Source: Nostoc sp. PCC 7120 = FACHB-418
Lineage (GTDB): Bacteria; Cyanobacteriota; Cyanobacteriia; Cyanobacteriales; Nostocaceae
Length of the DNA stretch: 32,000 nucleotides
Reading direction: 5' to 3'
NCBI RefSeq assembly: GCF_000009705.1
Contig: NC_003272.1
Location: forward strand, 6,060,001 to 6,092,000
Both the position numbers and the translations under genes were made by a program. Positions 2,849 through 32,000 of the stretch are shown in pieces (the stretch's first letter is position 1; each line of letters begins with the position of its first letter). Under the pieces are notes generated by a model. That model ran no database searches. It worked only from the letters and a program-made list of their open reading frames with translations, and was not told the origin of the DNA.

Positions 2849-2853
2849 TCGTT

Positions 2854-10119: not shown

Positions 10120-10135
10120 TTTTTCAAAATTCAAT

Positions 10136-10166: not shown

Positions 10167-10193
10167 ATCAGTTATGAACTTTGGCGAGTTATA

Positions 10194-10628: not shown

Positions 10629-10729
10629 CTTTTTTACTCCTCAATTTTTGGGCAAATCTTCATTTATGCTTAATTTCAGAACTCCCATGAGTTCAACCTT
10701 TGGTGTAGCACAACTTTTACTGTTTTGTA

Positions 10730-11350
10730 ATGACGTATTCTACTGAAAGCCTTGCCCAGTCAGATATTTGGCCAGCCACTGCTGATGTATCTACTCTGCG
10801 GCGAAAACTGCTGGATTTACTTTGTCAACTTGCTTATAAAGAGGGTGATTTCGTTCTCTCGTCTGGACAGCCTAGCTCATACTATATAAATGGCAAACAA
10901 GTGACATTGCATCCCCAAGGTGCTTTGGCAATTGGTCGCATTCTTTTATCACTGTTACCTTCAGATACTCAAGCGGTAGCTGGTTTAACATTAGGGGCTG
11001 ATCCAATTGTGACAGCTGTGAGTGTGGTTTCTGCGTATGAAAATCGACCAATACCAGCTTTGATTATTCGCAAAGAAGCTAAAGGTCATGGGACTAAGGC
11101 TTATATTGAAGGCCCCAATTTACCAGAGGGTGCAAAGGTGGTGGTTTTGGAAGATGTGGTGACGACTGGACAATCCGCCATGAAAGCTGTTGACCGACTG
11201 AGGGCTGCTGGTTATGTTGTTGATGAGGTCATTTCATTAGTGGATAGACAGCAAGGGGGGGCTGAATTTTATCAGTCGGTTGGTTTGAAGTTTGAGGCGG
11301 TGTTTACAATTATGGATCTTCAACAAAGGTATCAGGAATTAGGTAATTAG
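10730..11350 (+). CDS. pyrE: orotate phosphoribosyltransferase
   Basis: 206-aa ORF with the PRPP-binding motif VVVLEDVVTTGQS and the flexible-loop region RKEAKGHGT. Size and layout are typical of PyrE. Confidence 0.9.
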   Translation: MTYSTESLAQSDIWPATADVSTLRRKLLDLLCQLAYKEGDFVLSSGQPSSYYINGKQVTLHPQGALAIGRILLSLLPSDTQAVAGLTLGADPIVTAVSVVSAYENRPIPALIIRKEAKGHGTKAYIEGPNLPEGAKVVVLEDVVTTGQSAMKAVDRLRAAGYVVDEVISLVDRQQGGAEFYQSVGLKFEAVFTIMDLQQRYQELGN

Positions 11351-11379
11351 CGGAGGTATGGAGGAATGGCGCGCCTGAT

Positions 11380-14300
11380 TTACCTTCCTTTCTCCTCCAC
11401 TATTAGTTTCATTTCCGCAGTGCGTCCAAATTCTTCTGGTGCATATTGCAGATGAACTTCCGCACCAGGCCAGGAAAAAGTCCCAGGAGTAACAGAACGT
11501 ACCAAATAATGGAGGCTGTAGACTCCTGGTTCTAGATGGTCGGCATAGGCGATAATGCGATCGCTATAAATATTCCTAAAACCCAGTTCCCAGCTATCGG
11601 CTTTTGCTTGTAATGCGGCGGTGGTAGTTTGGAAACTCGCGTCAACGGCTTCTAAACCTGCTGGTAAGGGGTCTTTAATTACTAGATGATCTACAGGGCG
11701 ATCAACGATGATTTCTAAACCAATATCAAACACTTGTCCGAGGGCTAAAGTCAAGGGTTGATCGAGGGCGTAAATTCCTGTTTTTCGTAAAATTCTCTTT
11801 GCATTTACTTGACTTATTTCTCGTGTTATGCGTAAGCCGTTGAAGCGTCCTGGTTGATTTCCTTGCAGGCGATAGTTATAAGCAACCAAGTAGTGTAGAG
11901 TTCCATTACCTGATTTTTGTAGCGTTAAATCATGACGGCCACGGGGTAATTGATTCATCGGTACACTTAACTGGAGGCTGGGATTTTTATAGCCTGTAAA
12001 GCGATTTTCTCCTAACTTTCTCCCGGCTAACTGCACTGTGGCAACAAAATTAGGTGGCGTGGGTTGTAGTTGACCATATTCTACTAATGCTGTTAGTGCT
12101 TGGGCATTATTATAGTCAGTTTGCCATGTACCATCCCGGCGTAGTGCCAGCAGACTTTGGAGTAATTTATCTATGATTTCCGGTTTACTTTGTTTGGCGA
12201 TAAATAAGCGTAAAGCTTGCGCTTGTGCTGTGGTTGGTGAACTCATCCATCCCCAACTAGGTGGTAAACTAACAACTGCTGTGCGTCCAGTTTCAGATAT
12301 GTTTTGTTGCAGCTTGTTTACTAATTGCTGAGATTCATCTTGCCATTCTGGAAATTGAGATAAGTATCGCGCTAGTTTAATTTGAGTGACTAAATCAAAG
12401 TTGTTACGTTGTTCATAAATATCTGTTAGGAAGGTGTTGCGTTTATCTCCCAGTTCTGATAACGCTATTAAAGCATTAAGTTGTAGTTGCCTTTTGCATA
12501 GTTGCTGTTTGCAAAAATCATATTCTCCGGGGTTGGCGAGAACTTTTTGCAAATAGGTTTTGAGGCGAGATAGCATTCCCGTATCAACTAAATTGGGGAA
12601 GACTTGACTGGCTTTCACTAAGGATTCAACAGAATAAGCAGAAACCCAAGGGTCTGATTTTTCTTGTCCAGGGAAAGCCGCAAAACCACCATCAGAGATT
12701 TGTAGTTTTTGCAATTTTTCGACTGCTAAATTTGCCTGTTGTCTAGAGTTAAATTCAGCAAATGTTTGACCATATTTTTGGGCAATAGTTTGCAGATTAG
12801 TCGCAATGATTAATTGACTTGCAGATGGTTCTGTGAATGGCAAATCATTATCTGTTAATACTTGTTTTGCTGGTGCTTTAATTTCGGGAATCAAAGTACT
12901 CGCCAACTGAATATCTAAACCGCCAGCTTCGGGAAAGGTATTTTTATCAACATTTAAGGGAATCTTGATTTGTTTTTGGCTGACACCAGTCTCAACTATT
13001 TGTTCAGTAATTTCCAATGGCTTGACTTGCAAAGGTAATTCAAAAGCATCGGCTGTACCATTTAGTTGAGTGGTGAAGCGAACTTTACCAACTCCCACAC
13101 TATCCGCCACCATTGGGAAGCGATAGGCTTGAGTTGCAGATTCAGCTTGGGTTTGCAACGTAGTAGTTGTCGGATTTTTACTGTTAAACTTCACAGCCCC
13201 GCTAATTTCACCGTTAATTGAGAGATTTCCTGTATTTCCGGTGTTATTAGTTACGGATAAACCAGCGAGGATGCGATCGCCTGGACGGACAAATTGTGGC
13301 AAGATGGCATTACTTAGTAGTGGTTTGGTGGTGATAAATGTCGCGTCTCCATTGCCAAAACGCAGGTTTCCATCTGTAGCCACAGCCATCACACGCCAAG
13401 TAGTCAAATCATCTGGTAATTTGACGGTTATCTGTGCATTACCGCTAGCATCGGTCAGAACAGAACCGTTGTAGTAAGCTAAGGGTTGAAAGTCGGTGCG
13501 GGTGCGAGTATTTGCTGCACCTGTGGAGAAGCCACCACCGTAACCCCAGCCTTTAGGTTTTGCGACATCTTGCGGTTGTAATATCACATCTGGACGGTTA
13601 TCAGTAAAGCGGGTAGATATTGGCTGTTCTGCATAAACAGTATCTACTAAATTCGGCGGACGATAACCAGAAAGTTGCAGTACCGCCTCATTTACCACCA
13701 TGACTGTTAACTGTCCTTTGGTGGGATTACCTTGATTGTCCTTCACTTCCAGTTGGATTGTTTCCTCTGCACCAGGTTCTAGTGATGCTTGTGCTGGCTT
13801 AACTTGCAGTTTTAAATATTTATCTTCCAGGTTAACTTTAAAAGGAGTAAAGCCAATTTTTACCAAGTTATCTAAACTTCCTACTTCCACTTGGTTAATA
13901 GGTTTACCTTGTCTAACTAACACAGCTTCAACGGCTGCATTTGGTAGCATTTCTGGCGTAACCCGAAACTGAATTTGTGGTGCGCTACCCTGTACTTTGG
14001 TAATTTGTTGATAAATGGGTTTATCTTTAATCACTGCAAAGTATAATTCTGCATCTGCATAGGGAGATTGAATTAAGGCGGTAGCAGTTTCACCAGCTTT
14101 ATACTCTTTTTTATCTAACTTAACTTCTAAAACATCTTTATCTCGCGTACCCCAAAAGACTGCATTTCCTCCAGTTACCCAAATTTGTGAATCTGTAGCA
14201 CCTAATTCATTTTTGGCATCACTAAAATTAACTCTAATTCGATATGTACCAGATTCAGGTGGGGTTAAATTTACCGATTGCGGATTACTAGTAGATGTAA

Positions 14301-17100: not shown

Positions 17101-17380
17101 ATTTTTATAAATTTAAGATTAAAAATTACAGCAACTAGTCTCATCCCACCTCTCTTAAAATCTGCGCCCCTCCGCGCCAACCCCCACACTCCTTTGGATT
17201 TAAAAATCAAAATTTATTTACATAGATAACCAATCAAAAGCAGTAATTCCAAAAAACAACTACAATTCTTAACTATGAATTATTTTTAATTTTATTATTA
17301 AGGAATAGACATACTTACTGATGTAGATATCATCGCCACGGCAAAATTAAAGTAAATTCTCTTAAACAGGGTACTCCCTG

Positions 17381-19672
17381 ATGCAATTCATATCTCTATC
17401 GCTTACCAGAATGCGGCACACTAGTAAGGTGATCATAGCTGTGCTGCTAATATGCTTATTAATCCGCTTGATACCTTATTTTGCGCCGATTCGTGCTGTA
17501 GATATTGCCCAAAATCAACTAGCAATGCAATTTAGCGATCGCAATGGGCTACCATTAGGAACAATACTCACCCGTGACCAAGAGCATACATCAGTAGTAC
17601 CACTAAATCAGATTTCGCCCCAATTTATCCAAGCTATTTTAGCCGCCGAAGATGGTAGTTTTTATCATCATGGGGCTTTGGACTTGAAAGCAATTGTCCG
17701 CGCCATCAAAGAAGCTATCCACGCCAAAAAAATTGTTTCCGGCGCTTCCACGATTACCATGCAGTTAGCGCGGATGTTAGAACCAGTACCCCGCAACCTG
17801 TCAGGGAAAATGCAGGAGATTTGGTTAGCGTGGCGGTTAGCAGCCGGGATGAACAAGAATGAAATCCTCTCTGCATACATCAATCGCTTGCCCATGGGAG
17901 GGAATATATATGGTGTAGAAGCAGCAGCCCGTACTTATTTTTCCATCCCAGCCAGTGAATTAAATCTTGCCCAAGCTAGTTTGTTAGCTGCCATTCCTAA
18001 TAACCCCACCTACTTTAACCCTTACGAACATTGGGAACGACTGAAGCAACGACAAAAATACGTCCTCAATCGTATGGTACAAGAAGGGTATGTGAGCAAA
18101 GACACAGCATATCGCACATCCTCAGAAAAAGTTGTGTTTCAGTCCAACCAGCGAGGAATTATCGCCGCACCACACTTTTTATTTTGGTTAGCTAATCAAA
18201 TTCCCCCCACTCCTGCTGACACAAATCAATCAGTTATCCACACAACTATCAATCGTCCTTTGCAGCAATTTGTCGAAGCACAAGTACAGCAGGTAATTTC
18301 TACTCTTTCCGCCAATAACGTTCATGATGCAGCCGCACTAGTAATTGACAACCACACAGGGGAAGTTTTAGCTTACGTCGGTTCACCGGATTACTTTAAT
18401 CAAGCCCAACTGGGACGCAATGACGGAGTGCAAGCCCTACGTCAACCAGGTTCTACCCTGAAGCCATTTGTCTATGAATTAGCATTAGAAAAGCGGTTAA
18501 TTCGCCCAAATACTATTTTGGCAGATGTCCCGACCCATTACGCCATCCCCGGCGCACAACTCTACAGCCCAACGGATTATACCGAAAACTTTCTTGGGCC
18601 TGTGCGGGTACGCATCGCCTTAGCCAATTCCCTCAATATACCAGCCGTACGCGTCTTGGAAAAAGTGAGTGTACCAACTTTCCTAGAACGTCTACATCAA
18701 CTGGGATTTGTCCATCTAAAACAAACCCCAGAATACTATGGCTTAGGTTTAACCCTGGGTAGTGGTGAAGTTAGCCTCTGGGAACTAGCCCAAGCCTACC
18801 TGACTATAGCAAGACAAGGACAACCCGCCCCCCTCATTACCACCCTTCCCCAGTCTCCAGTCCCCCATCATACCCAACCCCCAAACCCCACCATCTGGCA
18901 ATTAATCACCAACATCCTCAGCGACAGCCATGCTCGTGCTACAGCCTTCGGTGTAGATTCAGTATTAAACTTACCATTCCCCGTGGCTGTGAAAACCGGT
19001 ACATCTTCCAACTATCGTGACACTTGGACAGTCGGCTTTACCACTGATTACACCGTCGCTACCTGGGTAGGTAACTTTAACGGTGAACCCATGCGTCAAG
19101 TTTCCGGGGTGACAGGCGCAGCACCCTTGTGGAATCGGATTATGTTACATCTGCACGAATATCAAGAACCAGCCAGTTTTCTCACTCCAGCAGGTTTATT
19201 GCAACTACCAATCTGTGCAGTTTCTGGGTTACGTCCCACACCAGACTGTACTTCAGTGGTGCAAGAATATTTCTATCCCGAAGATAAAACTAGCTACGAA
19301 AGGGACACTCAGTTTACATTACCACCAGAGTATAACGAGTGGTTAGCCACGCAACAGCGATCGCAGTTTACCTCTAGCAGCCTGAGAATTTTATCTCCTC
19401 ATGAAGGCGATGTATTCTTAGTGTATCCAGGTGAAGAAACACAACAAAAATTAGAATTTAAGTTAATAGGAAATAACTCTACACCTATAGAGTGGTGGCT
19501 CAACGGTGAAAAATTGAACACCCAGTCAGCTAATTCCTTATTTTGGTCGCTGCGTCCTGGTAACTGGACTTTAGAGGCGAGAAGCGGTGAAATGAGCGAT
19601 AAGGTAAAATTCCAGGTGAAACGGGCAAGTATTAAACCGACACGTAGGGGTTTCTCGATTGGTAATTCTTAA
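17381..19672 (+). CDS. pbpC: penicillin-binding protein 1C (bifunctional GT51 glycosyltransferase / transpeptidase)
   Basis: 763-aa ORF. GT51 motifs are EDGSFYHHGALD and GASTITMQLAR. Transpeptidase motifs are STLK (SxxK), SLN (SxN) and KTGTS (KTG). The C-terminal extension is typical of PBP1C, and the gene sits next to an alpha-2-macroglobulin gene. The start could alternatively be the Met at 17411. Confidence 0.9.
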   Translation: MQFISLSLTRMRHTSKVIIAVLLICLLIRLIPYFAPIRAVDIAQNQLAMQFSDRNGLPLGTILTRDQEHTSVVPLNQISPQFIQAILAAEDGSFYHHGALDLKAIVRAIKEAIHAKKIVSGASTITMQLARMLEPVPRNLSGKMQEIWLAWRLAAGMNKNEILSAYINRLPMGGNIYGVEAAARTYFSIPASELNLAQASLLAAIPNNPTYFNPYEHWERLKQRQKYVLNRMVQEGYVSKDTAYRTSSEKVVFQSNQRGIIAAPHFLFWLANQIPPTPADTNQSVIHTTINRPLQQFVEAQVQQVISTLSANNVHDAAALVIDNHTGEVLAYVGSPDYFNQAQLGRNDGVQALRQPGSTLKPFVYELALEKRLIRPNTILADVPTHYAIPGAQLYSPTDYTENFLGPVRVRIALANSLNIPAVRVLEKVSVPTFLERLHQLGFVHLKQTPEYYGLGLTLGSGEVSLWELAQAYLTIARQGQPAPLITTLPQSPVPHHTQPPNPTIWQLITNILSDSHARATAFGVDSVLNLPFPVAVKTGTSSNYRDTWTVGFTTDYTVATWVGNFNGEPMRQVSGVTGAAPLWNRIMLHLHEYQEPASFLTPAGLLQLPICAVSGLRPTPDCTSVVQEYFYPEDKTSYERDTQFTLPPEYNEWLATQQRSQFTSSSLRILSPHEGDVFLVYPGEETQQKLEFKLIGNNSTPIEWWLNGEKLNTQSANSLFWSLRPGNWTLEARSGEMSDKVKFQVKRASIKPTRRGFSIGNS

Positions 19673-19687
19673 CTGTGAAAGAAATTT

Positions 19688-20410
19688 CTAAAGCCTACCC
19701 CCTATTCTGAAAAATTTCCCCTGACGATACCAGCTATGTAGTTGTGCTGGTGCTACACCAAGTAAATAAGCAATAATCACGACTTGATTAATCAGCGTAG
19801 TTTGAAAAACTCCCCTCTGTAACCATCTCCGTCCAGAGGTTATTACTGCTACACCCAAAACAGTAATTTTCCCAATGTGCTTTAAACGTCTCATGAGTTC
19901 AAAGTCTTCCATTATGGGCAATTCAGAAAAACCACCAACTTTCTCAAATACCGCCTTTGTCATAAAAATTGCCTGATCTCCATAGGGCATTTGGAAAAAA
20001 TGCGATCGCCAATACACCCCTTTTTCTACCCAGCGCAAACCTGCCAAGTCTGCATCTATCCGCAACGCAAAGGCGCCAGCCACCACCCCAGGCTGTTGTA
20101 ACGCGGCGCGAATCATTTCATCAAAACCAACAGGTAAACGCGTATCTGCATGGAGAAACAACAAAATTTCACCAGCAGCCAGCGCCGCACCGGTGTTCAT
20201 TTGCACCGCCCGACCAGGAGACGAGGAGATAACTTTTACACCTAAAGATTGAGCGATCGCCACTGTATCATCTTGTGAGCCGCCATCAACAACAATGACT
20301 TCTATATTTACACTAGGTTGAGTGGTGGCAATAGTTTGTTGAATATTACCCACCTCATTTAATGTCGGGATAATAATAGAAATTTTAATATTTTTCAAAT
20401 TTTGCTCCAT
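19688..20410 (-). CDS. family 2 glycosyltransferase (GT-A fold), specific function unknown
   Basis: 240-aa ORF with N-terminal ISIIIPTLNE and VVDGGSQDDT (DxD-type) motifs typical of small GT2 enzymes. It is convergent with pbpC with a 15-bp gap. Confidence 0.8.
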   Translation of the reverse strand: MEQNLKNIKISIIIPTLNEVGNIQQTIATTQPSVNIEVIVVDGGSQDDTVAIAQSLGVKVISSSPGRAVQMNTGAALAAGEILLFLHADTRLPVGFDEMIRAALQQPGVVAGAFALRIDADLAGLRWVEKGVYWRSHFFQMPYGDQAIFMTKAVFEKVGGFSELPIMEDFELMRRLKHIGKITVLGVAVITSGRRWLQRGVFQTTLINQVVIIAYLLGVAPAQLHSWYRQGKFFRIGGRL

Positions 20411-20670
20411 GATTACCTGTACTAAATTCCTTACCCAGAATTATTCATGTCACATTACCAACTTAAACAAATAATATTAAATCTTTTAGATCTGATATCA
20501 GTTGATAAATTATTCCAACCAAGATTAGCAACAGTTATAAGTCGAGTTTTATATATATTTAGTTATAAAAAACAGCCTTAAAAAGATATAATTTTACATT
20601 AAATAATTCTACTCTAGAAATGTATGTACAGTTTTATATGAGGTTGCACATAATATAAAATTCATTGATT

Positions 20671-20700
20671 TATCCGCGTCTATCTGCGTGCATCTGCGTT
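20671..20700. repeat. three tandem 10-bp units (TATCCGCGTC TATCTGCGTG CATCTGCGTT) upstream of dapL
   Basis: Read directly. The 10-bp periodicity is exact, and the block lies 86-115 bp upstream of the dapL ATG within an otherwise AT-rich spacer. Confidence 0.6.
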
Positions 20701-20785
20701 CAATTATTATCGACATAGGATTCTATACAGCTTCATATTAATTTGGTATAAGCTATTTTAGCTAGGCAATTTTTTCATCTCTACT

Positions 20786-22021
20786 ATGGCAACTATTAAC
20801 GACAACTACCTCAAACTGAAAGCAGGCTACCTATTTCCCGAAATTGCGCGGCGGGTAAATGCCTTTGCCGAAGCCAACCCTGATGCTAAGATTATTCGCT
20901 TAGGTATTGGTGATGTCACCGAACCATTGCCAGCAGCTTGCCGATCTGCCATGATTCAAGCAGTGGAAGAAATGGGCGATCGCTCTTCTTTTAAAGGTTA
21001 CGGCCCAGAACAAGGTTATGCTTGGTTACGGGAGAAAATTGCCACCCAAGATTTTCAAGCGCGGGGTGCAGATGTAGACGCTGCCGAAATCTTCATTTCC
21101 GACGGCTCTAAGTGCGATACAGGCAACATTCTCGATATTTTTGGTGATAATAACATCATTGCTGTTACCGACCCAGTTTATCCTGTGTATGTAGACACTA
21201 ATGTCATGGCGGGACATACTGGCGCGGCTAATGAGAAAGGTGAGTTTGAGGGTTTAGTTTATTTACCTGTCACCGCAGAAAATAACTTCACCGCAGAAAT
21301 TCCTTCCCAAAAAGTAGACTTAATTTATCTCTGCTTCCCCAATAACCCCACAGGTGCAACCGCCACCAAAGAACATCTCCAAGCGTGGGTAGACTATGCC
21401 AAAGCACATAACTCAATTATCTTCTTTGATGCTGCCTACGAATCTTATATCACAGACCCATCCCTACCCCATTCTATCTACGAAATTGAAGGAGCCAGAG
21501 AAGTAGCGATCGAGTTTCGTTCCTTCTCCAAGAATGCAGGCTTCACAGGTACTCGTTGCGCCTTAACCGTCGTACCCAAAACCCTAAAAGCCAAAGCCGC
21601 CGATGGTTCCGATGTGGAACTGTGGAAACTATGGAACCGTCGCCAGTCTACCAAGTTCAATGGTGTATCTTACATAGTGCAACGGGGAGCCGAAGCTGTC
21701 TACTCCGAAGCCGGACAAGCCCAAGTTAAAGCACTGGTTAGCTTCTACTTAGATAATGCCAAAATCATCCGCGAAAAACTTACAGCCGCAGGCTTATCAG
21801 TATATGGTGGTGTAAATGCACCTTACGTTTGGGTAAAAACACCCAATGGTCTTTCCAGTTGGGATTTCTTCGATCAGCTATTGCAAACCGTCAACGTAGT
21901 CGGAACACCTGGTTCTGGTTTCGGTGCAGCTGGTGAAGGCTACTTCCGTGTTTCCGCATTTAACAGCAGGGAGAATGTGGAGGAGGCAATGAAGCGAATT
22001 ACTGAGAAGTTTAAACTCTAA
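20786..22021 (+). CDS. dapL: LL-diaminopimelate aminotransferase
   Basis: 411-aa ORF. The N-terminus [21 protein letters not shown] is characteristic of DapL-type aminotransferases. The PLP-lysine region is [13 protein letters not shown]. Fold-type I aminotransferase length. Confidence 0.92.
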
Positions 22022-22029
22022 GAAATCAA

Positions 22030-22046
22030 GGTGGGTAATGCCCACC
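22030..22046 (+). terminator. short GC hairpin (GGTGGG taatg CCCACC) just after the dapL stop
   Basis: Read directly, 9 nt after the stop codon. There is no immediate T-run (CATCTCTTAAAATTTT follows), so it is weak as an intrinsic terminator. Confidence 0.35.
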
Positions 22047-22133
22047 CATCTCTTAAAATTTTAGAATTAAGGACTGCCACATTCTTTTTTCAAATTGGTA
22101 CTATTTTGATTTGGTTAGAGTCATGACAAAGCA

Positions 22134-24623
22134 CTAAAGTTCACTTTTGGCAAGAGATGCACAGGTGAATGACGGTTGCACACCTGTAGGAGATTTAGCG
22201 GCAAAAAGCTCAATTTTTCCTTGGGCGTTACGATGCCAAGATGTAGCGTGGACAAAAACTTTTGGAGATTCAAGTATTTGGGCTTGTAAAGCTGGCGTTT
22301 TGTGGAATGCAGAGATATCGCGGATGTCAGACCAAGGGCGATCGCTCCTCACTTCCTGCATAGGATTTTGTGGGACACCACCCCGTCCTGTAGCGACAAA
22401 ACTACTATTATTAGTATTAGAACAGCCTGTAGCAATTTGTTGGGATGAGTCTGAGAGATTTGTTGGTAAATCTATTAAACCAGAATTAGGATCAATGCCA
22501 ACATTATTAATTTGGACTGTACCACTAACACTGAATTGGGAACTTGCGGTAATATCATTGCTCAAAACCTCTCTTGGATTGAGAAGATTACGGTACTCCA
22601 AACCGATAATTCCCTGAGTTGTGATTTGAATATTGCCCCCCTTTCCTTGTACGGCGTTGGCAATAATGTCACTATTTTCTAGACCAATCACAATGGGAGA
22701 GTTAATATTAATGTTGCCACCATTGCCATTACTACCTGCTTCGGCATTGATCAAGCTACCACGACGCATCAATAATACATCCCGCAGTTGCAGATTGATA
22801 TTGCCCCCCTCTCCAGCTTTTTTAGATGCTAGGATACTTGCATTATTGTCAAGTTTGAGGACGTTGGCATTAATTTGCAGAGTACCAGCCGTACCCAAAC
22901 CAGAATTTTCTACAAAAACCGTTGCCCCATTGGTAACATTCAAAACAGGAGTGTTTATGGTGGTGTTACCTGCATTAGCACGGGAAATTTGGGCAAATGT
23001 ACCAAAAGGACGCACAGCCGTACCGATATAGCTGGGATTGTTTGCATCCTTTACGCCATTTACATCAATCGATTCGGAAGCATTAATATTGAGTACACCA
23101 GCATTACCTAAAATTATGCTAGAAGCAGACACTCTCCCGCCAGCTTGCACTGACAATTTACGAGTATCAATCGCCAAATTTCCCGCATTACCAGACCCAA
23201 ATGTGGCAGTAGAGATGAGACTAAAATAAAAACCAGTGGGAGTTCCAGTGTTATTTACTTCAATAGTATCCGCCTTCACCGTCACATCACCCCCACTACC
23301 CACACCATAGGGTCTGGCTGCTATATTTCCCCCAGCTAAAACAGACAGCTTTTGAGTAGAGACAGAAATATTGCCGCCTTTCCCGCCTGCATAGGAAGCA
23401 GCTAATATTTGACTAACTGCTCGAAAGGCTGAAGGATCACCAACTGCAAAACCATTAACCCGCGTTTCATCGGTGTTGACGATAATATTGCCCCCTGATG
23501 CTGTGCTGAAAGTCCGGTTATAAATATAACCACCCTGATCAATATTCAATCGTGGAGTGTTAATGATAATATTCCCCGCCGCACCCAAGGCTGTACTTTC
23601 ATTCACTAAACTGCTAGAACTTTGAAAATCAGGCGACTTGCCAGTAATTTCTAAAAACTCTGAAGCATCAACAGCAATATCACCAGCTGTCTTTTGACTG
23701 CGATTTTGTACTAATATCATCGAGCCATCGCGGATACTGACTCGTTTTCCCTGGATATGGATGGCTCCTCCACTTTCCCCATTTAAATCCCGTGTCGATG
23801 CTAAGGCTCGTTGGGTGATTTGAATATTGCCAAAACTGGGAACTTGAGAATACTGGAAGGCAAATCCTTGCGGAGTAGAATTGAGAATCACATTGCCATT
23901 AGTCACACCACCCAATTCTATTAGTCCTCCTGGTGCAGAGAGCAGTCCGCCATCTAAGGCAATATCTTTGCCTAATAACGCTAGTGTTTTCCCTGGTTGT
24001 AGTTGTAATCCTCTGGAATTGAGATTTAGTCCAGAAACTTGCACTGAGTCACTTAATTGGGCATTATGTCCTGTACCTTGAACTGTAATCCCTCCTTGAT
24101 TACTACCAAATTGCAACCCAACAGGTACATTCATGGTTAACAAGGGGGATGTGTTGGTGTCTGTGCTACTAAATTTACTCCCATCCGCAAATGTAATAGT
24201 CTCAGCAGTTGTCCCGACAAATGATCCACCAATATTTAAACTGGCATGAGAACCAAAAATTATTCCTGTGGGGTTAAGTAAAAATAGATTGGCGCTGCCA
24301 TTAGTTTGAATCAAACCATCAATATTGGAAACATTACCACCAGTCACACGACTAAAAATATTTTGAATACTTGTAGGATTGTCAAATAATACAGAATCAC
24401 TTGTAGGGATAGAGAACTGACTAAAACTATGAAATAAATTATTGCCGACACGAGTACCGTTGGTAATGTTGTAAATATTACTTCCATTCACGGAAGTAGT
24501 GGCAGTAACAGAAGTATTGAGGGTATTATCTTGAGTTACTTGGGCATGAACACTATTGTTACAAACAGCAGATAAACAGATTACACTAAGCACGCCAAAC
24601 CCAACAAAAGTTAATTTCATCAA
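22134..24623 (-). CDS. TpsA-like exoprotein, paralog 1: filamentous-haemagglutinin N-terminal (TPS) domain, beta-helix repeats and a conserved C-terminal module
   Basis: 829 aa. The signal peptide ends in VHAQV. TPS-domain motifs are GNNLFHSFSQFSI and ANLFLLNPTGIIFG. Gly/Asn-rich repeats include GGNI.I and GNAGN. The C-terminal module is shared with the three neighbours. Confidence 0.88.
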   Translation of the reverse strand: MMKLTFVGFGVLSVICLSAVCNNSVHAQVTQDNTLNTSVTATTSVNGSNIYNITNGTRVGNNLFHSFSQFSIPTSDSVLFDNPTSIQNIFSRVTGGNVSNIDGLIQTNGSANLFLLNPTGIIFGSHASLNIGGSFVGTTAETITFADGSKFSSTDTNTSPLLTMNVPVGLQFGSNQGGITVQGTGHNAQLSDSVQVSGLNLNSRGLQLQPGKTLALLGKDIALDGGLLSAPGGLIELGGVTNGNVILNSTPQGFAFQYSQVPSFGNIQITQRALASTRDLNGESGGAIHIQGKRVSIRDGSMILVQNRSQKTAGDIAVDASEFLEITGKSPDFQSSSSLVNESTALGAAGNIIINTPRLNIDQGGYIYNRTFSTASGGNIIVNTDETRVNGFAVGDPSAFRAVSQILAASYAGGKGGNISVSTQKLSVLAGGNIAARPYGVGSGGDVTVKADTIEVNNTGTPTGFYFSLISTATFGSGNAGNLAIDTRKLSVQAGGRVSASSIILGNAGVLNINASESIDVNGVKDANNPSYIGTAVRPFGTFAQISRANAGNTTINTPVLNVTNGATVFVENSGLGTAGTLQINANVLKLDNNASILASKKAGEGGNINLQLRDVLLMRRGSLINAEAGSNGNGGNININSPIVIGLENSDIIANAVQGKGGNIQITTQGIIGLEYRNLLNPREVLSNDITASSQFSVSGTVQINNVGIDPNSGLIDLPTNLSDSSQQIATGCSNTNNSSFVATGRGGVPQNPMQEVRSDRPWSDIRDISAFHKTPALQAQILESPKVFVHATSWHRNAQGKIELFAAKSPTGVQPSFTCASLAKSEL

Positions 24624-24683
24624 TCAAGTTCTTGTTTTTATTACGTATCTATTGTTCCCAATTGAGTAAATTTGTAACGTTAA

Positions 24684-27161
24684 TTAATTTTCGGCTACAG
24701 CAGCACAGGTTAAGGCTGTTTGCATCTGCGAAGGGGATTTAGCTGCAACCAACTCTATTTTGCCTTGGGCATTACGTCGCCAGAAAGTAGCTTGTAAAAG
24801 GAATTTTGGGGATTTCGGTGTTTGGGCCTGTACTGGTTGTGTTGTATGGTATGCAGAGAGATCGCGGATATCAGACCAAGTGCGATCGCTCCTCAATTCC
24901 TGAGAAGGATTTTGTGGTATCCCACCCCGTCCTGTAGCGACAAAACTACTACCTTGGTTGACATCACAACCACTAGCAATTTGTTGAGATGAATCACTGA
25001 GATTTGCTGGTAGTTCAATTAAACCAGAATTGGGGTCAACACCAACATTATTAATTTCCACATTGCCGTTGAGATTGAATTGAGAACTGGCGGTAATATC
25101 ATTGGTGAGGTCATCTTTGGGGGTGAGGGTGTTACGAAATTCTAGACCAATAATGCCTTGGGTAGTGATGTCGATATTGCCACCATTTCCTTGCACTGCA
25201 TTGGCAATGATATCGCTATTTTCTAGACCAATCACATTGGGTGAGTTAATGTTAATGTTGCCACCATTGCCATTACTACCTGCTTCGGCATTGATAAAGC
25301 TACCTTGACGCATCAATAATACATCCCGCAGTTGTAGATTGATGTTACCGCCTTCCCCTGCTTTTGTAGATGCCGAAAGACTACCACCATTGTCAAGATG
25401 TAAGGTGTTTGCGTTAATTCTTAAAGTGCCGGCATCACCTAGAATCTGGTTTTGGGTAAAAACTTGTCCCTGGTTGCGAACGGTTAATTGAGGCGTATTG
25501 ATGGTGATATTACCGGCTTTGGCAGTAGAGTTGCTATTATTACTGATACCAGAAGTTGTAAACACAGTTAATGGACGGGCGATCGCTCCAATATAGCTAG
25601 GATTTTGTGGGTCTTTGATTCCATTTACATCAATTGATTCAGTGGCATTAATCGTCAGGTTGCCAGCGTTGCCAAAGTTTACAGTCGAAACTGAAACTAA
25701 ACCGCCATCTTGAATCGACAGTTTGCGCGTATTAAGCTGAAGATTGCCAGCATTCCCAGAGCCAAAAGTATTAGCTGATAACAGACTAATTAAATAAGAC
25801 CCTGGGAGGGTATTTAAGCTTGATATATCAACAGTGTCAGCACTGATTTTAACGTTGCCACCATTACCTGTAAGAAAGCTTCTCGTACCGACATTACCAC
25901 CACCAAAAATTGACAGGCGATCGCTAGAAAGCAATAAATCTCCACTTTGACCTTTACCATAAGTTGCAGCCATCAGCACGCCAAATATCGGATTAGCACT
26001 AGGATTCCCCGGTTGAATCCCACCCACTAAAACTTCATTGGCTTTAACTACGACATTACCACTGGGTGCTGAACTATAGGTACGGTTAATCATGATCGCA
26101 CCTCGATCAATGGTGAGTTTTGGGGTGATAATAGCAATATTTCCTGCTGCTCCTGCTTGCAGAGTTTCATTGACGATACCACTGGAACTTTGAAAGTTTG
26201 AGGACATACCTATCACTTGCAACGACTCTGTGGCATTGATTGTAATATCACCCGCAGTCTGGCTACCGAGATTTTGTACTACCACCAAAGAACCGTCTTG
26301 AAGACTGATTTGTTTTCCCTGAACTTGTATTGCGCCTGGAATGATGCCACGCACAGATGCTATAGCACGTCGGCTCATTTGAATATCACCAAAGCTATAG
26401 TTGTCACGAGGATAGCTCAGGGTGAATGCTGAAGAATCGACATTGATATTGACATCGCCTTGATTGACGCTTCCCAGTTCAATGCGTCCTCCTGGTGCGG
26501 ACAGAAAGCTCCCATTGAGGACAAGATTACCACCAACCAAAGCTAGTGTTTTTCCAGATGATAGCTGTAACCCATCGGTACTGGTTAATCCCGAAATCGG
26601 AGATATACCATTTAATATGTGATTGTTTCCTGTTCCCTCAACAGAAATAGTTCCTGGATTGCCGCCAAACTGTAATCCGATTGGGACACTCATAGTCAAT
26701 AAAGGAGTTGTATTGGTTTTAACTCCGCTAAATTCTGTCCCATCAGCAAACTTAATACTATTGGCTGTTGTACCAATAAACGAACCACCAATATTCAAAC
26801 TGGCATCTTTACCAAATATGATTCCACTAGGGTTGAGTAAAAATAAATTTGCAGTACCGTTAGCTTGAATTAAACCATCAATGTTGGAAACACTACCACC
26901 AGTCACACGGCTAAAAATATTTTGGATATCTGGGGCATTGTCGAAGAGTGCAGAACCTTTACTGGGAATAGAAAATTGACTGAAACTGTGAAACAGATTG
27001 TTCCCGACGCGATTCCCATTGATAATGGTGAAATCATTACCACTTTGAGAGACTTCAGTGTTGAGAGTGCTGTCAGGAATGACTTGGGCATTAACACTGC
27101 TGCAAGTTGAACATATTAAGATTCCGCCAATTAAACCAAAGCAACCAGAAGTTACTTTCAT
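24684..27161 (-). CDS. TpsA-like exoprotein, paralog 2
   Basis: 825 aa. The signal peptide ends in VNAQV. Motifs GNNLFHSFSQFSI and ANLFLLNPSGIIFG are present, with beta-helix repeats and the conserved C-terminal module (AGEGGNINLQLRDVLLMR ... GRGGIPQNP ... TCAAV). Confidence 0.88.
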   Translation of the reverse strand: MKVTSGCFGLIGGILICSTCSSVNAQVIPDSTLNTEVSQSGNDFTIINGNRVGNNLFHSFSQFSIPSKGSALFDNAPDIQNIFSRVTGGSVSNIDGLIQANGTANLFLLNPSGIIFGKDASLNIGGSFIGTTANSIKFADGTEFSGVKTNTTPLLTMSVPIGLQFGGNPGTISVEGTGNNHILNGISPISGLTSTDGLQLSSGKTLALVGGNLVLNGSFLSAPGGRIELGSVNQGDVNINVDSSAFTLSYPRDNYSFGDIQMSRRAIASVRGIIPGAIQVQGKQISLQDGSLVVVQNLGSQTAGDITINATESLQVIGMSSNFQSSSGIVNETLQAGAAGNIAIITPKLTIDRGAIMINRTYSSAPSGNVVVKANEVLVGGIQPGNPSANPIFGVLMAATYGKGQSGDLLLSSDRLSIFGGGNVGTRSFLTGNGGNVKISADTVDISSLNTLPGSYLISLLSANTFGSGNAGNLQLNTRKLSIQDGGLVSVSTVNFGNAGNLTINATESIDVNGIKDPQNPSYIGAIARPLTVFTTSGISNNSNSTAKAGNITINTPQLTVRNQGQVFTQNQILGDAGTLRINANTLHLDNGGSLSASTKAGEGGNINLQLRDVLLMRQGSFINAEAGSNGNGGNININSPNVIGLENSDIIANAVQGNGGNIDITTQGIIGLEFRNTLTPKDDLTNDITASSQFNLNGNVEINNVGVDPNSGLIELPANLSDSSQQIASGCDVNQGSSFVATGRGGIPQNPSQELRSDRTWSDIRDLSAYHTTQPVQAQTPKSPKFLLQATFWRRNAQGKIELVAAKSPSQMQTALTCAAVAEN

Positions 27162-27241
27162 TACCCCAACTCCATTAAAATTGTAGCCTTAGGATGCCCT
27201 GAATATTTTTTTACTAACGCTTCAAGTGAACTGCTTAAAAC

Positions 27242-29689
27242 TTAACTTTGAGACACCGCAGCACAGGTTAATAGTTGTTGCACCTGAGCAGAAGATTTAT
27301 CTGCAACTATCTCAATTTTGCCGTCAGTATTGCGATGCCAAGATGTAGCTTGCACAAGAGTTTGTGGAGGTGTTGGTATTTGGGCCTTGACTTCGTTGAT
27401 TTTCCTATATGCAGAGATATCGCGGATGTCTGACCAAGTGCGATCGCTCCTCACTTCCAGAGTAGGATTTTGCGGCACACCACCCCGTCCTGTAGCTACA
27501 AAACTACTATTATTAGCATTAGAACAGCCTGTAGCAATTTGTTGGGATGGATCGGTGACATTGGCGGGTAGTTCTACTAAACCTGAATTGGGATCAACAC
27601 CAACATTATTAACTTGTACTGTGCCATTCACCCCAAACTGTGAACTGGCAGTAATATCGTTTTCTGGTGTCAGTTGGGGGCGAAACTTCAGGCCAAAAAT
27701 ACCTTGAGTTGTAATTTGAATGTTACCACCGCGACCTGTGACTGCATTAGCCATAATATCACTGTTGTTAAATCCGACAATAACTGGCGAATTAATCATA
27801 ATATTGCCACCATCTCCTGAACCTAAAGCTGTTCCTATAATCAAACTCTGATCTCGAAGAATGAGCGCGTTTGTGTGGATATTCATATCACCACCTTGTC
27901 CTGAAGCTGTAAAACTCGCTAAAAACCCCTTATTTAACTCCACCATTTCAGTATTGATGTTCAGTGCGCCTGCATTCCCAATTCCATAGTTACCAGTATT
28001 AATTCTGGCTTCGTCACTAATTTTGAGGATAGGAGTATTGACAGTTACCTGTCCGGAAGAGCCTCTGGGAATTTCGCTCACATTTGATAATTGGGTATAA
28101 TAATTAGCCGTCAAAGAGCCAACAGTTGAAGAAATATTACTACCATAGGGAACACTTGGTGATCGACCACTTATATTAATGGATTCCGTCGCATTGACAG
28201 TCAAATCACCGGCATTACCTACTCCAAGACTGGCAGTAGTTACACTACCGCTTTCCTTGATTGTGAGTGTGCGAGTATTTAGTCTCAGTTTTCCAGCATT
28301 ACCACCACGTCCAATAGTAGTGTTAGAAATAATACTAGGAATACTGATGGGCGTTGCTCCAATGACATTTACATGAGCGGCATCAATTGTAACTGTACCA
28401 CTCGTACCAAGTCCAAAAGTTGTGGAGCCGAGATAACCACCATCCAACACAGATAAATTCTGTGTTGCGACTATCACATCACCAGCTTTCCCTGTAGAGA
28501 ATGTGAGTGTTCCAATTGCTGCATAGACTGAAGGGTCGGTAGAAATGTAACCATTGACATTCAAATTAGAGGTTGTGATGTTGATATAACCACTATCGGC
28601 AGATTTATAATTACGGTTAGCAACTACCGCACCGTTGTTAACACTTAAATTTGGTGTGACAACGCTAATATTACCACTCCTACCACTGCTGACGGCCTCG
28701 TTGATTATGCTGGTACGGATTTTCAAGTCAGTAGTCGCACCAGATAATTTCAGAGTATCAGAGGCGAACACATAAATATCTCCACCCTTTTGAATTCCTC
28801 GGTTCTGCACCCATAATACAGAGCCATCTGTGAGGCTAACTGTGCGACCTTGTACTTGAATAGAACCTGCATTGATACCATTGACATTCACAAGCGATCG
28901 CTCTGTAAAATCAATATCACCAAATGTAGAAGTTTTTTGATAATCCAGGTTAAATCCTTGACTGACTCTATTGAGTGTAACTTCACCTTCAGTTACACCA
29001 CCGAGTTCAACTCGTCCCTGGGGAGCAAACAAAATCCCACCATTCAGGTCAATAGAAGAACCCACAAGTGCTAATGTACGTCCCGATTTCACGGCCAAAT
29101 TAGTCTCTAATACTGTAGGAACATAGGGTGTGATCAGTGGATTTTGAGAGGTCAGATGATGTCCAGTTCCTTGTAAGGCAATCTTTCCTGAGTTTTGACC
29201 AAGCTGTAAGCCTATTGGTACACTCATAGTTAACAATGGCGACTGACTGAGCTTCGTTGCACTAAATTCTGTTCCATCAGCAAATTTAATAGTATTGGCA
29301 GTTGTGGCGACAAAAGAACCACCAATACTCAAACTGGTATTTTTGCCAAAAATAATCCCAGCAGGGTTGATTAAAAACAAGTTGGCATTACCCTTAGCAC
29401 TAATTTCACCATCAATGTGAGAAATATTGCCACCAGTCACCCGACTAAAAATGTTTTGAATATCAGTAGCATTGTCAAATGATACAGAACTACCTGGGGG
29501 AATAGAGAACTGACTAAAGCTATGAAATAAATTGTTGCCGACCTGAATGCCGTTTGTAATGCTGTAATTACTATCCACAACAGTGCCAAGGGTGTTATCA
29601 GAAGTTACTTGTGCATAAACACCATTGTTATTAACAGCAGATAAACAAATTGCACTCAGTATAACAAAGCCAACAAAAGCGAATTTCAT
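27242..29689 (-). CDS. TpsA-like exoprotein, paralog 3
   Basis: 815 aa. The signal peptide ends in VYAQV. Motifs GNNLFHSFSQFSI and ANLFLINPAGIIFG are present, with beta-helix repeats and the C-terminal module (GRGGVPQNP, WSDIRDIS, TSWHRN, TCAAV). Confidence 0.88.
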   Translation of the reverse strand: MKFAFVGFVILSAICLSAVNNNGVYAQVTSDNTLGTVVDSNYSITNGIQVGNNLFHSFSQFSIPPGSSVSFDNATDIQNIFSRVTGGNISHIDGEISAKGNANLFLINPAGIIFGKNTSLSIGGSFVATTANTIKFADGTEFSATKLSQSPLLTMSVPIGLQLGQNSGKIALQGTGHHLTSQNPLITPYVPTVLETNLAVKSGRTLALVGSSIDLNGGILFAPQGRVELGGVTEGEVTLNRVSQGFNLDYQKTSTFGDIDFTERSLVNVNGINAGSIQVQGRTVSLTDGSVLWVQNRGIQKGGDIYVFASDTLKLSGATTDLKIRTSIINEAVSSGRSGNISVVTPNLSVNNGAVVANRNYKSADSGYINITTSNLNVNGYISTDPSVYAAIGTLTFSTGKAGDVIVATQNLSVLDGGYLGSTTFGLGTSGTVTIDAAHVNVIGATPISIPSIISNTTIGRGGNAGKLRLNTRTLTIKESGSVTTASLGVGNAGDLTVNATESINISGRSPSVPYGSNISSTVGSLTANYYTQLSNVSEIPRGSSGQVTVNTPILKISDEARINTGNYGIGNAGALNINTEMVELNKGFLASFTASGQGGDMNIHTNALILRDQSLIIGTALGSGDGGNIMINSPVIVGFNNSDIMANAVTGRGGNIQITTQGIFGLKFRPQLTPENDITASSQFGVNGTVQVNNVGVDPNSGLVELPANVTDPSQQIATGCSNANNSSFVATGRGGVPQNPTLEVRSDRTWSDIRDISAYRKINEVKAQIPTPPQTLVQATSWHRNTDGKIEIVADKSSAQVQQLLTCAAVSQS

Positions 29690-29741
29690 TAGTCTAGTTC
29701 TTGTTTCTATTACGTATATATTATTCCCAGCTTAGTAAACT

Positions 29742-32000
29742 TTACAACATTAATTTATTTTGAGGTACAGATGCACAGGTTAAGGCTGTTTGTACCTGAG
29801 TCGGAGATTGATTGGCAGTTAATTCAATTTTGCCGTTAGCATTACGTCGCCAGGAATTAGCTTGCAGCAGTAATTCTGGAGATTTTGGTGTTTGTGCTTG
29901 TACTTGTACTAATTCTGTTTTGTGGAATGCAGAGATATCGCGGATGTCTGACCAAGTGCGATCGCTCCTCATTTCCTGCATAGGATTTTGTGGCACACCA
30001 CCCTTGCCTGTGGCAACAAAGCTACTACCAGTATTATTAGAACAACCACTAGCGATTTGTTGAGATGGGTCGGTGAGATTTTCTGATAATTCTACTAACC
30101 CAGAATTTGGATCGACACCAATATTATTTATTTGCACAGTGCCATTGACATTGAATTGGGAACTAGCAGTAATGTCATTTGTCAAAACTTCTCTAGGATT
30201 GAGAAGATTGCGATACTGCAACCCAATGATTCCCTGAGTTGCAATATGAATATTACCGCCCCTTCCTTGGACGGCATTGGCAATAACATCACTGTTTTCT
30301 AAACCGACAATATTTGGGGCTGTAATTTTAATATTACCGCCATTACCAACTGCCTCTGCACTGATGAAACTGCCATTACGCATCAGTAAGACATCGCGCA
30401 CTTGCAGATCAATATTACCTCCTTCGCCTGCATTGGCTTCAGAACGAAGTTTGCTAGCTAGATCCAACTTCAAATAATTAGCCTGAATGAGCATATTGCC
30501 GGCATTTCCTGTGCCTTTGCCGCTAACTACAATTTCGGTGCGATCGCTAAGACTCAAATCTTTTGTCGTTACATATACGGAACCCGCAACACCAGGGCCT
30601 GTAGAGGAGGCATACAACCCACTTGGGCCAGTAGCATCCAGAGAGTAAAGCAGTTGCCCACTTGGTACTTGACTCACACCTGCAATATTGATGGAATTGG
30701 CTTGAATAGCAATATTTCCGGCTTTACCATAGGTTTCAGTTGAGGTGGAAATTCGCCCTCCGTCCAGTAAGTTGAGCTTACCAACATTAAAAGTAATGTC
30801 GCCACCTTGTCCCTGACCCAGACTAATCAGTTTGTCAGTAGAGAAATCGTAGTTACCATTTGTTGATGCGAAAAATCGTGTGGCAACTCCAGTTGACGAA
30901 CTGCCACCCAAAATTACTTCGTCAGCATTAACAATAATGTTACCTGATGTACCTTCACCATAAGTACCAGTCCGAATACCAGGGCCGTTTAAGACCTCTA
31001 GTTTACCGACATTGAGAATTATATCTCCACCCCTACCTGTGGCAAATTCACGGATACTGGTACTCATCCCCGTCAAAAATGCAGGTTCACCTGTTGCAGT
31101 TTCACCTGTCACACTTAAGTTCTTGGCTGTGACAATAATATTGCCACCATCACCAGTTCCTCTAGCAGTAGCGCGTAATTCACCACCGTCCCGAATATTG
31201 ACTTGGGTGGCATCAATCGTGACATTACCACCTCGACCTTGGGAACCATTCATCGTATTAGATGCTAGTGTACTGACGCTAAATCGCTGCTTTGTCGGCG
31301 CATGGATGGCTTCCCCAATCACATTAACAGTTGTAGCTTTAACTGTAATATTGCCGGAATCTCCAATTCCATTGGTACGGGTGTTAATTTGTGCGCCATT
31401 TAAAACACTAAGAAGAGGTGTTTCAATTGTTATATCACCACCCCGTCCCCTAGCTGTTGGTTGAGAGTGAGTAGCAATTGCAGTGTTAGAAAGGGATGAG
31501 CGACCAATAAGTTCAAGGGATTCAGAGGCTTTGACTAGAATACCTTGTCCTGAACTTGTGCCTAAAGTGTGGGAAGTGATAGTTGAAGAACCAGACAAAG
31601 TTATTTTTTGCCCATGGAGAGCGATCGCCCCACCTTGGTTTCCACTGGTATCAACCTTGGCTACATTGCTAAAGTTAATATCTTGGAACTGAGCCACAGT
31701 ATTGAAATCTAAGCTGAATCCAGTAGTGTTTGCAGACAGTCCCACAATATTATTTGCTGCAACGCTCCCTAATTCAACTCTGCCATCGGTAGCAGTAATT
31801 GTACTCTGGTCAAAAGTTAAGTTATTTCCTACTAGTGCAAATGTGTTTCTCGCGGGAATTGCTAATTTTGACCCATAAACGTTAATTGAACTGGGACTGC
31901 TGCCCATTTGCAAACCAATCGGCACGCTCAAGGTGAGTAAAGCTGAATCCAGTGGACTTGTAGCACTAAACTTAAATCCATCAGCAAATTTAATACTTTC
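29742..32000 (-). CDS. TpsA-like exoprotein, paralog 4 (5' end lies beyond the window edge)
   Basis: The reading frame stays open to position 32000. The bases upstream of the ORF-track start translate to ESIKFADGFKFSATSPLDSALLT. The ORF-track Met at 31931 is a TTG inside the motif LSVPIGLQ, which aligns at about residue 160 of paralogs 1-3. The gene is therefore N-terminally truncated by the window and is longer than its neighbours. Confidence 0.85.
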   Translation of the reverse strand, partial: ESIKFADGFKFSATSPLDSALLTLSVPIGLQMGSSPSSINVYGSKLAIPARNTFALVGNNLTFDQSTITATDGRVELGSVAANNIVGLSANTTGFSLDFNTVAQFQDINFSNVAKVDTSGNQGGAIALHGQKITLSGSSTITSHTLGTSSGQGILVKASESLELIGRSSLSNTAIATHSQPTARGRGGDITIETPLLSVLNGAQINTRTNGIGDSGNITVKATTVNVIGEAIHAPTKQRFSVSTLASNTMNGSQGRGGNVTIDATQVNIRDGGELRATARGTGDGGNIIVTAKNLSVTGETATGEPAFLTGMSTSIREFATGRGGDIILNVGKLEVLNGPGIRTGTYGEGTSGNIIVNADEVILGGSSSTGVATRFFASTNGNYDFSTDKLISLGQGQGGDITFNVGKLNLLDGGRISTSTETYGKAGNIAIQANSINIAGVSQVPSGQLLYSLDATGPSGLYASSTGPGVAGSVYVTTKDLSLSDRTEIVVSGKGTGNAGNMLIQANYLKLDLASKLRSEANAGEGGNIDLQVRDVLLMRNGSFISAEAVGNGGNIKITAPNIVGLENSDVIANAVQGRGGNIHIATQGIIGLQYRNLLNPREVLTNDITASSQFNVNGTVQINNIGVDPNSGLVELSENLTDPSQQIASGCSNNTGSSFVATGKGGVPQNPMQEMRSDRTWSDIRDISAFHKTELVQVQAQTPKSPELLLQANSWRRNANGKIELTANQSPTQVQTALTCASVPQNKLML

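Follow-up and report, generated by a model that had tools for sequence, protein, structure and literature searches.

Mosaic ends in a tandem tpsA array of Nostoc sp. PCC 7120 probably reflect short-tract recombination between ancient paralogues

Nostoc sp. PCC 7120 carries, in the 32,000-nt stretch analysed here (positions 6,060,001 to 6,092,000 of NC_003272.1; hereafter the window), four tandem genes of the TpsA type, which we call P1 to P4. They occupy the minus strand from 22134 to 32000 and form the promoter-distal end of an array of 11 such genes. Short tracts near the 3' ends of these genes are nearly identical between particular pairs, whereas the central parts of the same genes have diverged strongly, and different segments of the genes support different trees. 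An earlier note on this DNA had described the mosaic over 22134-30440; the four-gene array does lie there, but the end coordinate 30440 cuts P4.

A predicted two-partner secretion locus

An upstream walk through joined loci shows that the full locus begins with a single tpsB gene, coding for a 588-aa protein with POTRA and ShlB domains, and continues with 11 tandem tpsA genes in the order G9, G8, G7, G6, G5, X795, X819, P4, P3, P2 and P1. The tpsB gene encodes the domains PF08479 POTRA_2, PF03865 ShlB and PF01103 Omp85 and stands directly upstream of the first tpsA, outside the window (2434-4200 of the upstream loci). With its tpsA array and single tpsB, this is a predicted type Vb, or two-partner, secretion (TPS) locus. 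The array matches PCC 7120 all5110/all5111 by identity, X795 being BAB76809.1 and G5 being all5111; judging from position, P1-P4 are probably all5105-all5108. Literature found by the locus tags of the array amounted to a passing mention of an operon, one microarray line and a predicted binding site. The mention, by Arnold et al. (2010), names All5116 as the transporter of the putative substrates All5110-All5115 (PMC2878562). Each of the 11 copies is a full open reading frame (ORF) with a signal peptide and a TPS domain, and the spacers in the array, 52-95 nt long, contain no ORF. The genes, modules and spacers that fall in the window are as follows.

22134-24620, minus strand: P1, TpsA-type, 828 aa from the ATG at 24620; ORF with PF05860 (E=1.6e-66) and TIGR01901; probably all5105
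~24171-24620, minus strand: 5' module of P1 (signal peptide and conserved TPS core)
~22836-24170, minus strand: type-specific central beta-helix cassette of P1
22134-22835, minus strand: conserved 3' module of P1 (last helix coils and tail)
24621-24683, minus strand: spacer upstream of P1, resembling the P3 and G7 spacers; J-box-like GGGAACAAT at 24651-24659, 30 nt before the ATG
24684-27161, minus strand: P2, TpsA-type, 825 aa; ORF with TPS domain; probably all5106
27162-27241, minus strand: spacer upstream of P2; degenerate J-box-like GGGCATCCT at 27191-27199, 29 nt before the ATG
27242-29689, minus strand: P3, TpsA-type, 815 aa; ORF with TPS domain; probably all5107
29690-29741, minus strand: spacer upstream of P3; J-box-like GGGAATAAT at 29720-29728, 30 nt before the ATG
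29742 to beyond 32000, minus strand: P4, TpsA-type, full protein 885 aa, its N-terminal 133 codons cut off by the window end; probably all5108

The mechanically called ORF of P1 (22134-24623) opens at a TTG (24621-24623); the ATG in the next codon gives MKLTFVGF..., as in the starts of the paralogues, and this ATG at 24620 is probably the true start. The exact P2 protein was found on 22 contigs, PCC 7120-like assemblies among them.

Each gene consists of three modules: a conserved 5' module with the signal peptide and the TPS domain, a type-specific central beta-helix cassette, and a conserved 3' module made up of the last coils and a tail of ~120 residues. The TPS domain, which is the part recognised by the transporter, was detected as PF05860 in all of P1-P4 (for P1-P3, E lies between 1.5e-72 and 1.6e-66; for P4, which is truncated, it is 2.5e-21), together with matches to TIGR01901 adhes_NPXG (E ~1e-25 to 1e-27). 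An AlphaFold2 model of P1, built with 50 family members, features a continuous beta-helix over approximately residues 30-700 (mean predicted local distance difference test score, pLDDT, of 77), with the pLDDT dropping below 50 in the tail (residues 708-828). Foldseek neighbours of this model in the PDB include HxuA, EtpA, HMW1, FHA and HpmA, with E down to 7e-10. The tail (22134-22500 in P1, with equivalents in P2-P4) is strongly conserved across the family and includes the motif SSFVATGRGG.PQNP and two cysteines that never vary. No Pfam family covers it, and no solved homologue came up in a search of PDB sequences with full-length P1, where the TPS domain alone was matched.

Near-identical ends and diverged centres

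A blastn self-comparison with a percent-identity filter returned nothing useful, and a maximal-segment scan on the codon alignment of all 11 paralogues was used instead. It yielded 14 tracts of 45-213 nt, all within the last ~230 codons. Tracts in the window were verified on raw coordinates, ungapped and in frame, and include the following.

22672-22799, minus strand: P1 copy of the P1-P2 tract; 7 mismatches in 128 positions; last beta-helix coils (GGNINLQLRDVLLMR...NGNGGNININSP)
25216-25343, minus strand: P2 copy of the P1-P2 tract; P1-type sequence, 0.94-0.95 identical to 7120_P1 and Ali_P1 and 0.76 to four other P2 orthologues
22307-22447, minus strand: P1 copy of the P1-P3 tract; 9 mismatches in 141 positions; tail module (...SSFVATGRGGVPQNP..RSDR.WSDIRDISA)
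27409-27549, minus strand: P3 copy of the P1-P3 tract
29917-30003, minus strand: P4 copy of the P1-P4 tract; 4 mismatches in 87 positions against P1 22297-22383; contains a 45-nt stretch identical to P3

The stretch shared by P3 and P4 (27409-27453 and 29927-29971) is free of mismatches over its 45 nt. Sliding-window identity is strongly non-uniform, lying at ~0.45-0.65 in the centres and peaking at up to 0.94 for P1-P2 (alignment columns 706-735), 0.83 for P1-P4 (751-780) and 0.92 for P1-P3 (~826). The centres of P1 and P2, which the earlier note had called strongly diverged, indeed share a nucleotide identity of only ~0.52-0.68, with a synonymous divergence (pS) of 0.68, and its estimate of about eight differences in the tract between them was close to the seven that we counted. 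Equally, the AGEGGNINLQLRDVLLMR block is present in P1, P2 and P4 and absent from P3, as it had reported.

Likenesses at the gene ends were more mixed. The spacers at 24624-24683 and 29690-29741 do share the motif quoted for them, and the spacer together with the first 90 nt gives 114 matches at ~142 aligned positions between P1 and P3. The pairing of P1 with P3 proposed earlier thus stands for the spacer, a likeness of the signal peptides and the TSWHRN tail, but the signal-peptide region of P1 is nearest to that of G7 (0.87), outside the window, and only then to that of P3 (0.80). The companion claim, that the tails of P2 and P4 pair with each other (WRRNA..., QTALTCA), is borne out in the protein but not in the DNA, where the likeness is not above chance (p=0.70) and the tails of other genomes are no less close. 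Both likenesses are limited to short terminal stretches and, with all 11 paralogues included, partners outside the window (G7, X795 and X819) appear.

Permutation tests point to recombination in the ends. A test of the pairwise homoplasy index (PHI) type was significant in the 3' module, with 1/1000 permutations when the four genes were tested and 0/1000 when all 11 paralogues were; the corresponding values for the 5' module were 50/1000 and 9/1000, and the centre, saturated at synonymous sites, gave no significant signal. Permuting the order of polymorphic sites, as in GENECONV, gave p<0.0005 for P1-P2 and for P1-P3, and several further pairs among the 11 paralogues were significant. Sites informative for the quartet P1-P4 are grouped by topology along the 3' part. 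In the centre, the topology 12|34 is favoured by 102 sites, 13|24 by 66 and 14|23 by 59, and P1 and P2 share 61% of their amino acids there, against 47-51% for all other pairs (0.51 for both P1-P3 and P2-P4).

Synonymous sites tell the same two parts of the genes apart. pS is ~0.68-0.76, and so saturated, in the centre and 0.36-0.50 in the tail for all pairs; for P1-P2 it falls to 0.33 in alignment columns 691-745. Nonsynonymous divergence (pN) is low in the tracts. Long ORFs run antisense over the tails of P1 and P3 (22147-22617, 22633-23031 and 27318-27707, plus strand), with only short ones in P2 and P4, and all start with TTG; they look like by-products of codon composition, not genes. Because they differ from one paralogue to the next, an overlapping gene is no explanation for the synonymous constraint.

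To place the array among its relatives, species-representative genomes were scanned with P2, and five yielded useful arrays: Cronbergia UHCC 0137, Trichormus M33_DOE_039, Anabaena WFMT, Aliinostoc HNIBRCY26 and Calothrix membranacea FACHB-236. (A protein search with the P2 cassette alone was uninformative, listing short or partial proteins and missing known orthologues.) Orthologues of P1, P2, P3, P4, G5, G8, G9 and X819 occur in these genomes at 76-87% amino acid identity, and the gene order differs in each. The centres of P1-P4 are ~0.84-0.97 identical at the nucleotide level to those of orthologues in other genera and ~0.45-0.6 to those of paralogues (centre averages of 0.84 and 0.45, respectively). 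Because the cassettes are saturated at synonymous sites and have closer orthologues in other Nostocales genera, the paralogues are ancient, older than the genera that share them. No such separation exists in the tail, where orthologues (0.76/0.69), paralogues of the same genome (0.78/0.69) and unrelated pairs (0.76/0.68) are indistinguishable.

Trees built from separate segments are, as the earlier note anticipated, strongly incongruent. In neighbour-joining bootstraps, every cassette type is supported as a monophyletic group by 100% in the centre, by 0% in the tail and, except for P4, by 0% in the first 140 codons as well; in that 5' end, the four Cronbergia genes instead form a clade at 100%. 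In the segment of the P1-P2 tract, 7120_P1, 7120_P2, Cro_P2 and Ali_P1 form a clade with 98% bootstrap, and the groups of type P1 and type P2 receive 0%. This points to a transfer of P1-type sequence into the P2 lineage and, as Cronbergia P2 shares the tract, to an event older than the split of the two P2 copies. The other two tracts find their closest partners at home: the P1-P3 tract is 0.936 identical to its within-genome partner and at most 0.872 to any sequence of the five other genomes (bootstrap 0.97-0.99), and the values for the P1-P4 tract are 0.954 and at most 0.897.

The most instructive comparison is with Cronbergia UHCC 0137, whose locus at 9890-21472 holds four tandem tpsA genes with 5' ends that are 98-100% identical (all start MRALAKLTKGIAK...) and 3' ends that are 93-98% identical. 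The centres of these four genes are unrelated, one being 95-100% identical to PCC 7120 P2 and another 89-98% identical to G5. Their stop and start codons overlap. Between PCC 7120 P2 and Cronbergia P2, pS is only 0.067 in the centre but reaches 0.74 in the 5' end and 0.40 in the 3' end, and orthologue pairs of P3, P4, G5, G8 and G9 show a reversal in the same direction. Orthologues that are more diverged in their conserved ends than in their centre cannot be produced by purifying selection alone; decoupled histories of ends and centres can produce them. The P2 cassette is ~97% identical in nucleotide sequence between the two genomes and its flanking ends in Cronbergia are Cronbergia-specific, whereas the tpsB genes are 71% identical (pS 0.65). 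Even within a single genome pair, pS differs widely among cassettes.

An insertion of six residues in the tail (RSD-VYNGLHL-RTWSD) likewise tracks the genome and not the cassette type, being found in four of four Cronbergia genes, in five of six Anabaena WFMT genes and in none from the other four genomes. It interrupts the tail motif RSDRxW, whose invariant S-D-R is encoded in 11/11 PCC 7120 paralogues by the HIP1 octamer GCGATCGC (22338-22345, 24882-24889, 27440-27447 and 29958-29965 in the window). The HIP1 site falls within most of the tail tracts. Cronbergia and Anabaena WFMT genes lack the octamer in this motif because the genome-specific insertion breaks it.

Explanations weighed

We favour, with a probability of roughly 0.8, the explanation that the patchy near-identity arose by short-tract recombination between the conserved end modules of old, diverged paralogues, with the ends decoupled from the cassettes. 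Homologous recombination (gene conversion) would pass tracts of 45-213 nt from the end modules of one paralogue to those of another, and such exchange would uncouple the history of an end from that of the cassette it flanks. It is the mechanism, direction and timing of these exchanges that we infer; what is observed is a mosaic that is statistically significant, segment trees that disagree and a synonymous divergence whose pattern is reversed.

Several points weigh against this explanation. None of the tracts is long, and they fall in the best-conserved parts of the coding sequence, in which constraint lowers divergence too. GENECONV-type permutation was only suggestive for P1-P4 (p=0.086) and gave no significance for P3-P4 (p=0.29) or, as above, for P2-P4. 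The P1-P2 tract is equally close to Ali_P1 and Cro_P2 (0.92-0.96), and the exchange between P1 and P2 need not, from these sequences, have occurred inside this array. No recombination event was seen between PCC 7120-like assemblies. Finally, the comparison set consisted of five other genomes, and tpsB was the sole non-array baseline for divergence, for Cronbergia only, since an ORF in one comparison locus first taken as dapL proved not to be dapL.

Among the alternatives, the strongest holds that the mosaic was imported, that is, that cassettes or genes arrived by horizontal transfer with their ends or recombined with foreign DNA. The closeness of the P1-P2 tract to Ali_P1 and Cro_P2 is in keeping with this, as are a P2 cassette that is 97% identical between genomes with 71% identical tpsB genes and the great differences in pS among the cassettes of one genome pair; sampling is also thin, so that unsampled donors are possible. 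However, the P1-P3 and P1-P4 tracts have partners in the same genome that are closer than any sequence of the five other genomes, and both the homogenised ends in Cronbergia and a 161-nt identity between the tails of G5 and X819 are most simply local events. As a general account we regard import as unlikely, although part of the mosaic may come from between-genome exchange instead of in-array conversion.

Such exchange could itself depend on the conserved ends, which may also act as homology arms that move whole cassettes between genomes, a step suggested by one clear case. Judged against tpsB as the single baseline gene (only 71% identical, pS 0.65), the 97% identical P2 cassette seems to have been transferred horizontally, and recently, into a resident gene frame; the crossovers would lie near codons 140-180 and 710-780. 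More broadly, and tentatively, the 5' TPS-domain and 3' tail modules might be portable homology arms through which central beta-helix cassettes are exchanged among Nostocales genera into resident frames; we consider this possible but less likely than not.

The earlier note had instead proposed that a P1-P2 unit was duplicated to give P3-P4 and was later overprinted by conversion tracts. P1 and P3 share a spacer, a signal-peptide likeness and the TSWHRN tail, P2 and P4 share WRRNA/QTALTCA in the protein, and the signal peptides of the 11 genes are loosely of two kinds that partly alternate, all of which would fit such an origin. The centres contradict it: the majority topology there is 12|34, P1 and P2 are closer to each other than any other pair is, and each of P1-P4 has far closer orthologues in other genera, where the gene order is different. 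Moreover, the 5' end of P1 is nearest to G7 and the tail pairing of P2 with P4 is not significant. A two-gene duplication is accordingly quite improbable, and this part of the earlier note does not hold.

Less credible still is strong purifying selection on the TPS domain and tail with no recombination at all. It would account for the location of the tracts within the most conserved protein motifs and for the low pN there. Yet the tracts are pair-specific at sites that vary among paralogues, pS is lowered as well as pN, orthologues differ more in their conserved ends than in the variable centre, segment trees conflict with high bootstrap, the tail indel follows the genome and not the cassette type, and antisense ORFs are inconsistent among paralogues. 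The signs by which the earlier note proposed to separate recombination from selection, namely uneven sliding-window identity, incongruent segment trees, a significant PHI-type test and a synonymous divergence that is lower in tracts and tails than in the centre, were all found, and the last of these argues for recombination over selection alone.

That recombination is ongoing, as the earlier note had it, finds no support in the assemblies compared. The tests, trees and pS argue for recombination between the tandem paralogues, but across the array PCC 7120-like assemblies agree with an identity of at least 99.98%, and the one apparent deletion among them is not real. GCA_003990585.1 and two JGI assemblies show nine tpsA genes, and GCA_014696735.1 and the reference show 11, a difference of exactly 5,013 bp whose junction falls within the 161-bp stretch identical between the G5 and X819 tails. 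A two-gene deletion by recent unequal crossover was considered and rejected: the same assemblies hold an orphan contig (5,012 or 4,997 bp) with both missing genes, and one such contig, RSCN01000087.1, maps exactly onto the 5,013-bp loop. The apparent nine-gene array (GCA_003990585.1, JGI 3300029221) is an assembly collapse at a perfect 161-bp repeat between paralogue tails. Separately, a 4,072-bp metagenome contig of ENA ERZ926316 is a clean P4::P3 chimera with 393 P4-type sites followed by 165 P3-type sites and a switch in the 45-nt identical stretch; it corresponds to window 29773-30870 joined to 24281-27813, an arrangement in which the body of P3 would be lost. Such a contig may represent a genuine deletion variant or a join made by the assembler, and it was not used as evidence.

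That the mosaic as a whole is an artefact of chimeric repeat assembly or misalignment has a negligible probability: the repeats do mislead assemblers, as the collapsed loop and possibly the ERZ926316 chimera illustrate, but several independent assemblies agree on the P1-P4 region at ≥99.98%, and its tracts were compared ungapped, in frame and on raw coordinates.

Promoters, neighbours and known systems

The J-box, the extended -10 element of SigJ, has the consensus GGGaAtacT (PMC6495340). A motif fitting GGGNANNNT precedes the ATG of P1, P2 and P3 by 29-30 nt and recurs in the corresponding position for 10-11 of the 11 array genes; most array genes of the other genomes have it there too, and it is also frequent inside genes. 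In a sigJ overexpressor, all5113 (G7 here) was 2.07-fold up (PMC2779892). The placement of the motif suggests that each array gene may have its own SigJ-type promoter. Promoter and terminator scans of the window returned nothing above chance except one hairpin after P1.

22029-22047, no strand assigned: G+C-rich hairpin between the convergent P1 and dapL; no other gene boundary in the array part of the window has a terminator-like site

Elsewhere in the window, a gene for a 1,906-aa bacterial alpha-2-macroglobulin (11380-17100, minus strand) lies divergently beside a penicillin-binding protein 1C gene (17381-19672, plus strand), a pairing already known in bacteria.

These results matter in several ways. 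PCC 7120 is the main model for filamentous cyanobacteria, and the 11-gene tpsA array takes up ~30 kb of its genome. Modular genes with old cassette types that cross genera, and with recombining ends, provide a framework for experiments and annotation. The repeats of the array mislead short-read assemblers, to the point of a false two-gene 'deletion' in a public PCC 7120 assembly, and whole-gene trees of this tpsA family will mislead as well. Finally, if the ends do act as portable arms, each array would hold a set of secreted or surface beta-helix specificities that is particular to the strain and reshuffled by horizontal transfer, a repertoire which a SigJ-type promoter for every gene may tie to a hormogonium or desiccation programme.

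The array shares with FHA/FhaC, HMW1, HxuA, EtpA and ShlA/HpmA, all two-partner systems, the signal peptide and TPS domain, the long right-handed beta-helix and a ShlB/POTRA transporter gene that heads the locus. It differs from them in that one tpsB serves 11 tandem full-length tpsA genes, and in that its proteins are short (~800-960 aa) and end in the conserved ~120-residue tail with two invariant cysteines.

In the loci for contact-dependent growth inhibition (CDI) and the tpsA/tpsC loci of Neisseria, homologous recombination in conserved sequence swaps the variable module of TpsA-family genes, and alternative modules are arrayed in one locus. Our array resembles them in having TpsA-family genes, a variable module and alternatives arrayed together. 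Their variable module, however, is a C-terminal toxin with a downstream immunity gene, and their spare cassettes are truncated and silent, whereas here the central beta-helix varies and the C-terminus is conserved. We considered and rejected a CDI (CdiA/CdiB/CdiI) type for the locus on the grounds of this conserved C-terminus, the lack of a Pfam toxin domain and the ORF-less spacers, which at 52-95 nt leave no room for immunity genes. Antigenic variation from silent cassettes, of the pilE/pilS type, was also rejected: all 11 copies are complete, and a similar promoter-like motif precedes 10-11 of them.

Segmental gene conversion and concerted evolution are known from other families of surface proteins, such as Neisseria opa, Helicobacter babA/babB and Haemophilus hmw1A/hmw2A. 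These families have in common with the array short, pair-specific tracts in paralogues that have otherwise diverged, segment trees that conflict, and gene ends that have become alike within one genome. In PCC 7120, by contrast, homogenisation is weak and patchy, the clearest signal is that ends are decoupled from cassettes across genera, and no machinery for phase or antigenic variation and no host-immune context is evident for the array. Segmental recombination in a surface-protein family is a familiar pattern, of which we would judge the array a clean and unsurprising case; less ordinary are its size and the way in which cassettes seem to move from genus to genus by means of conserved arms.

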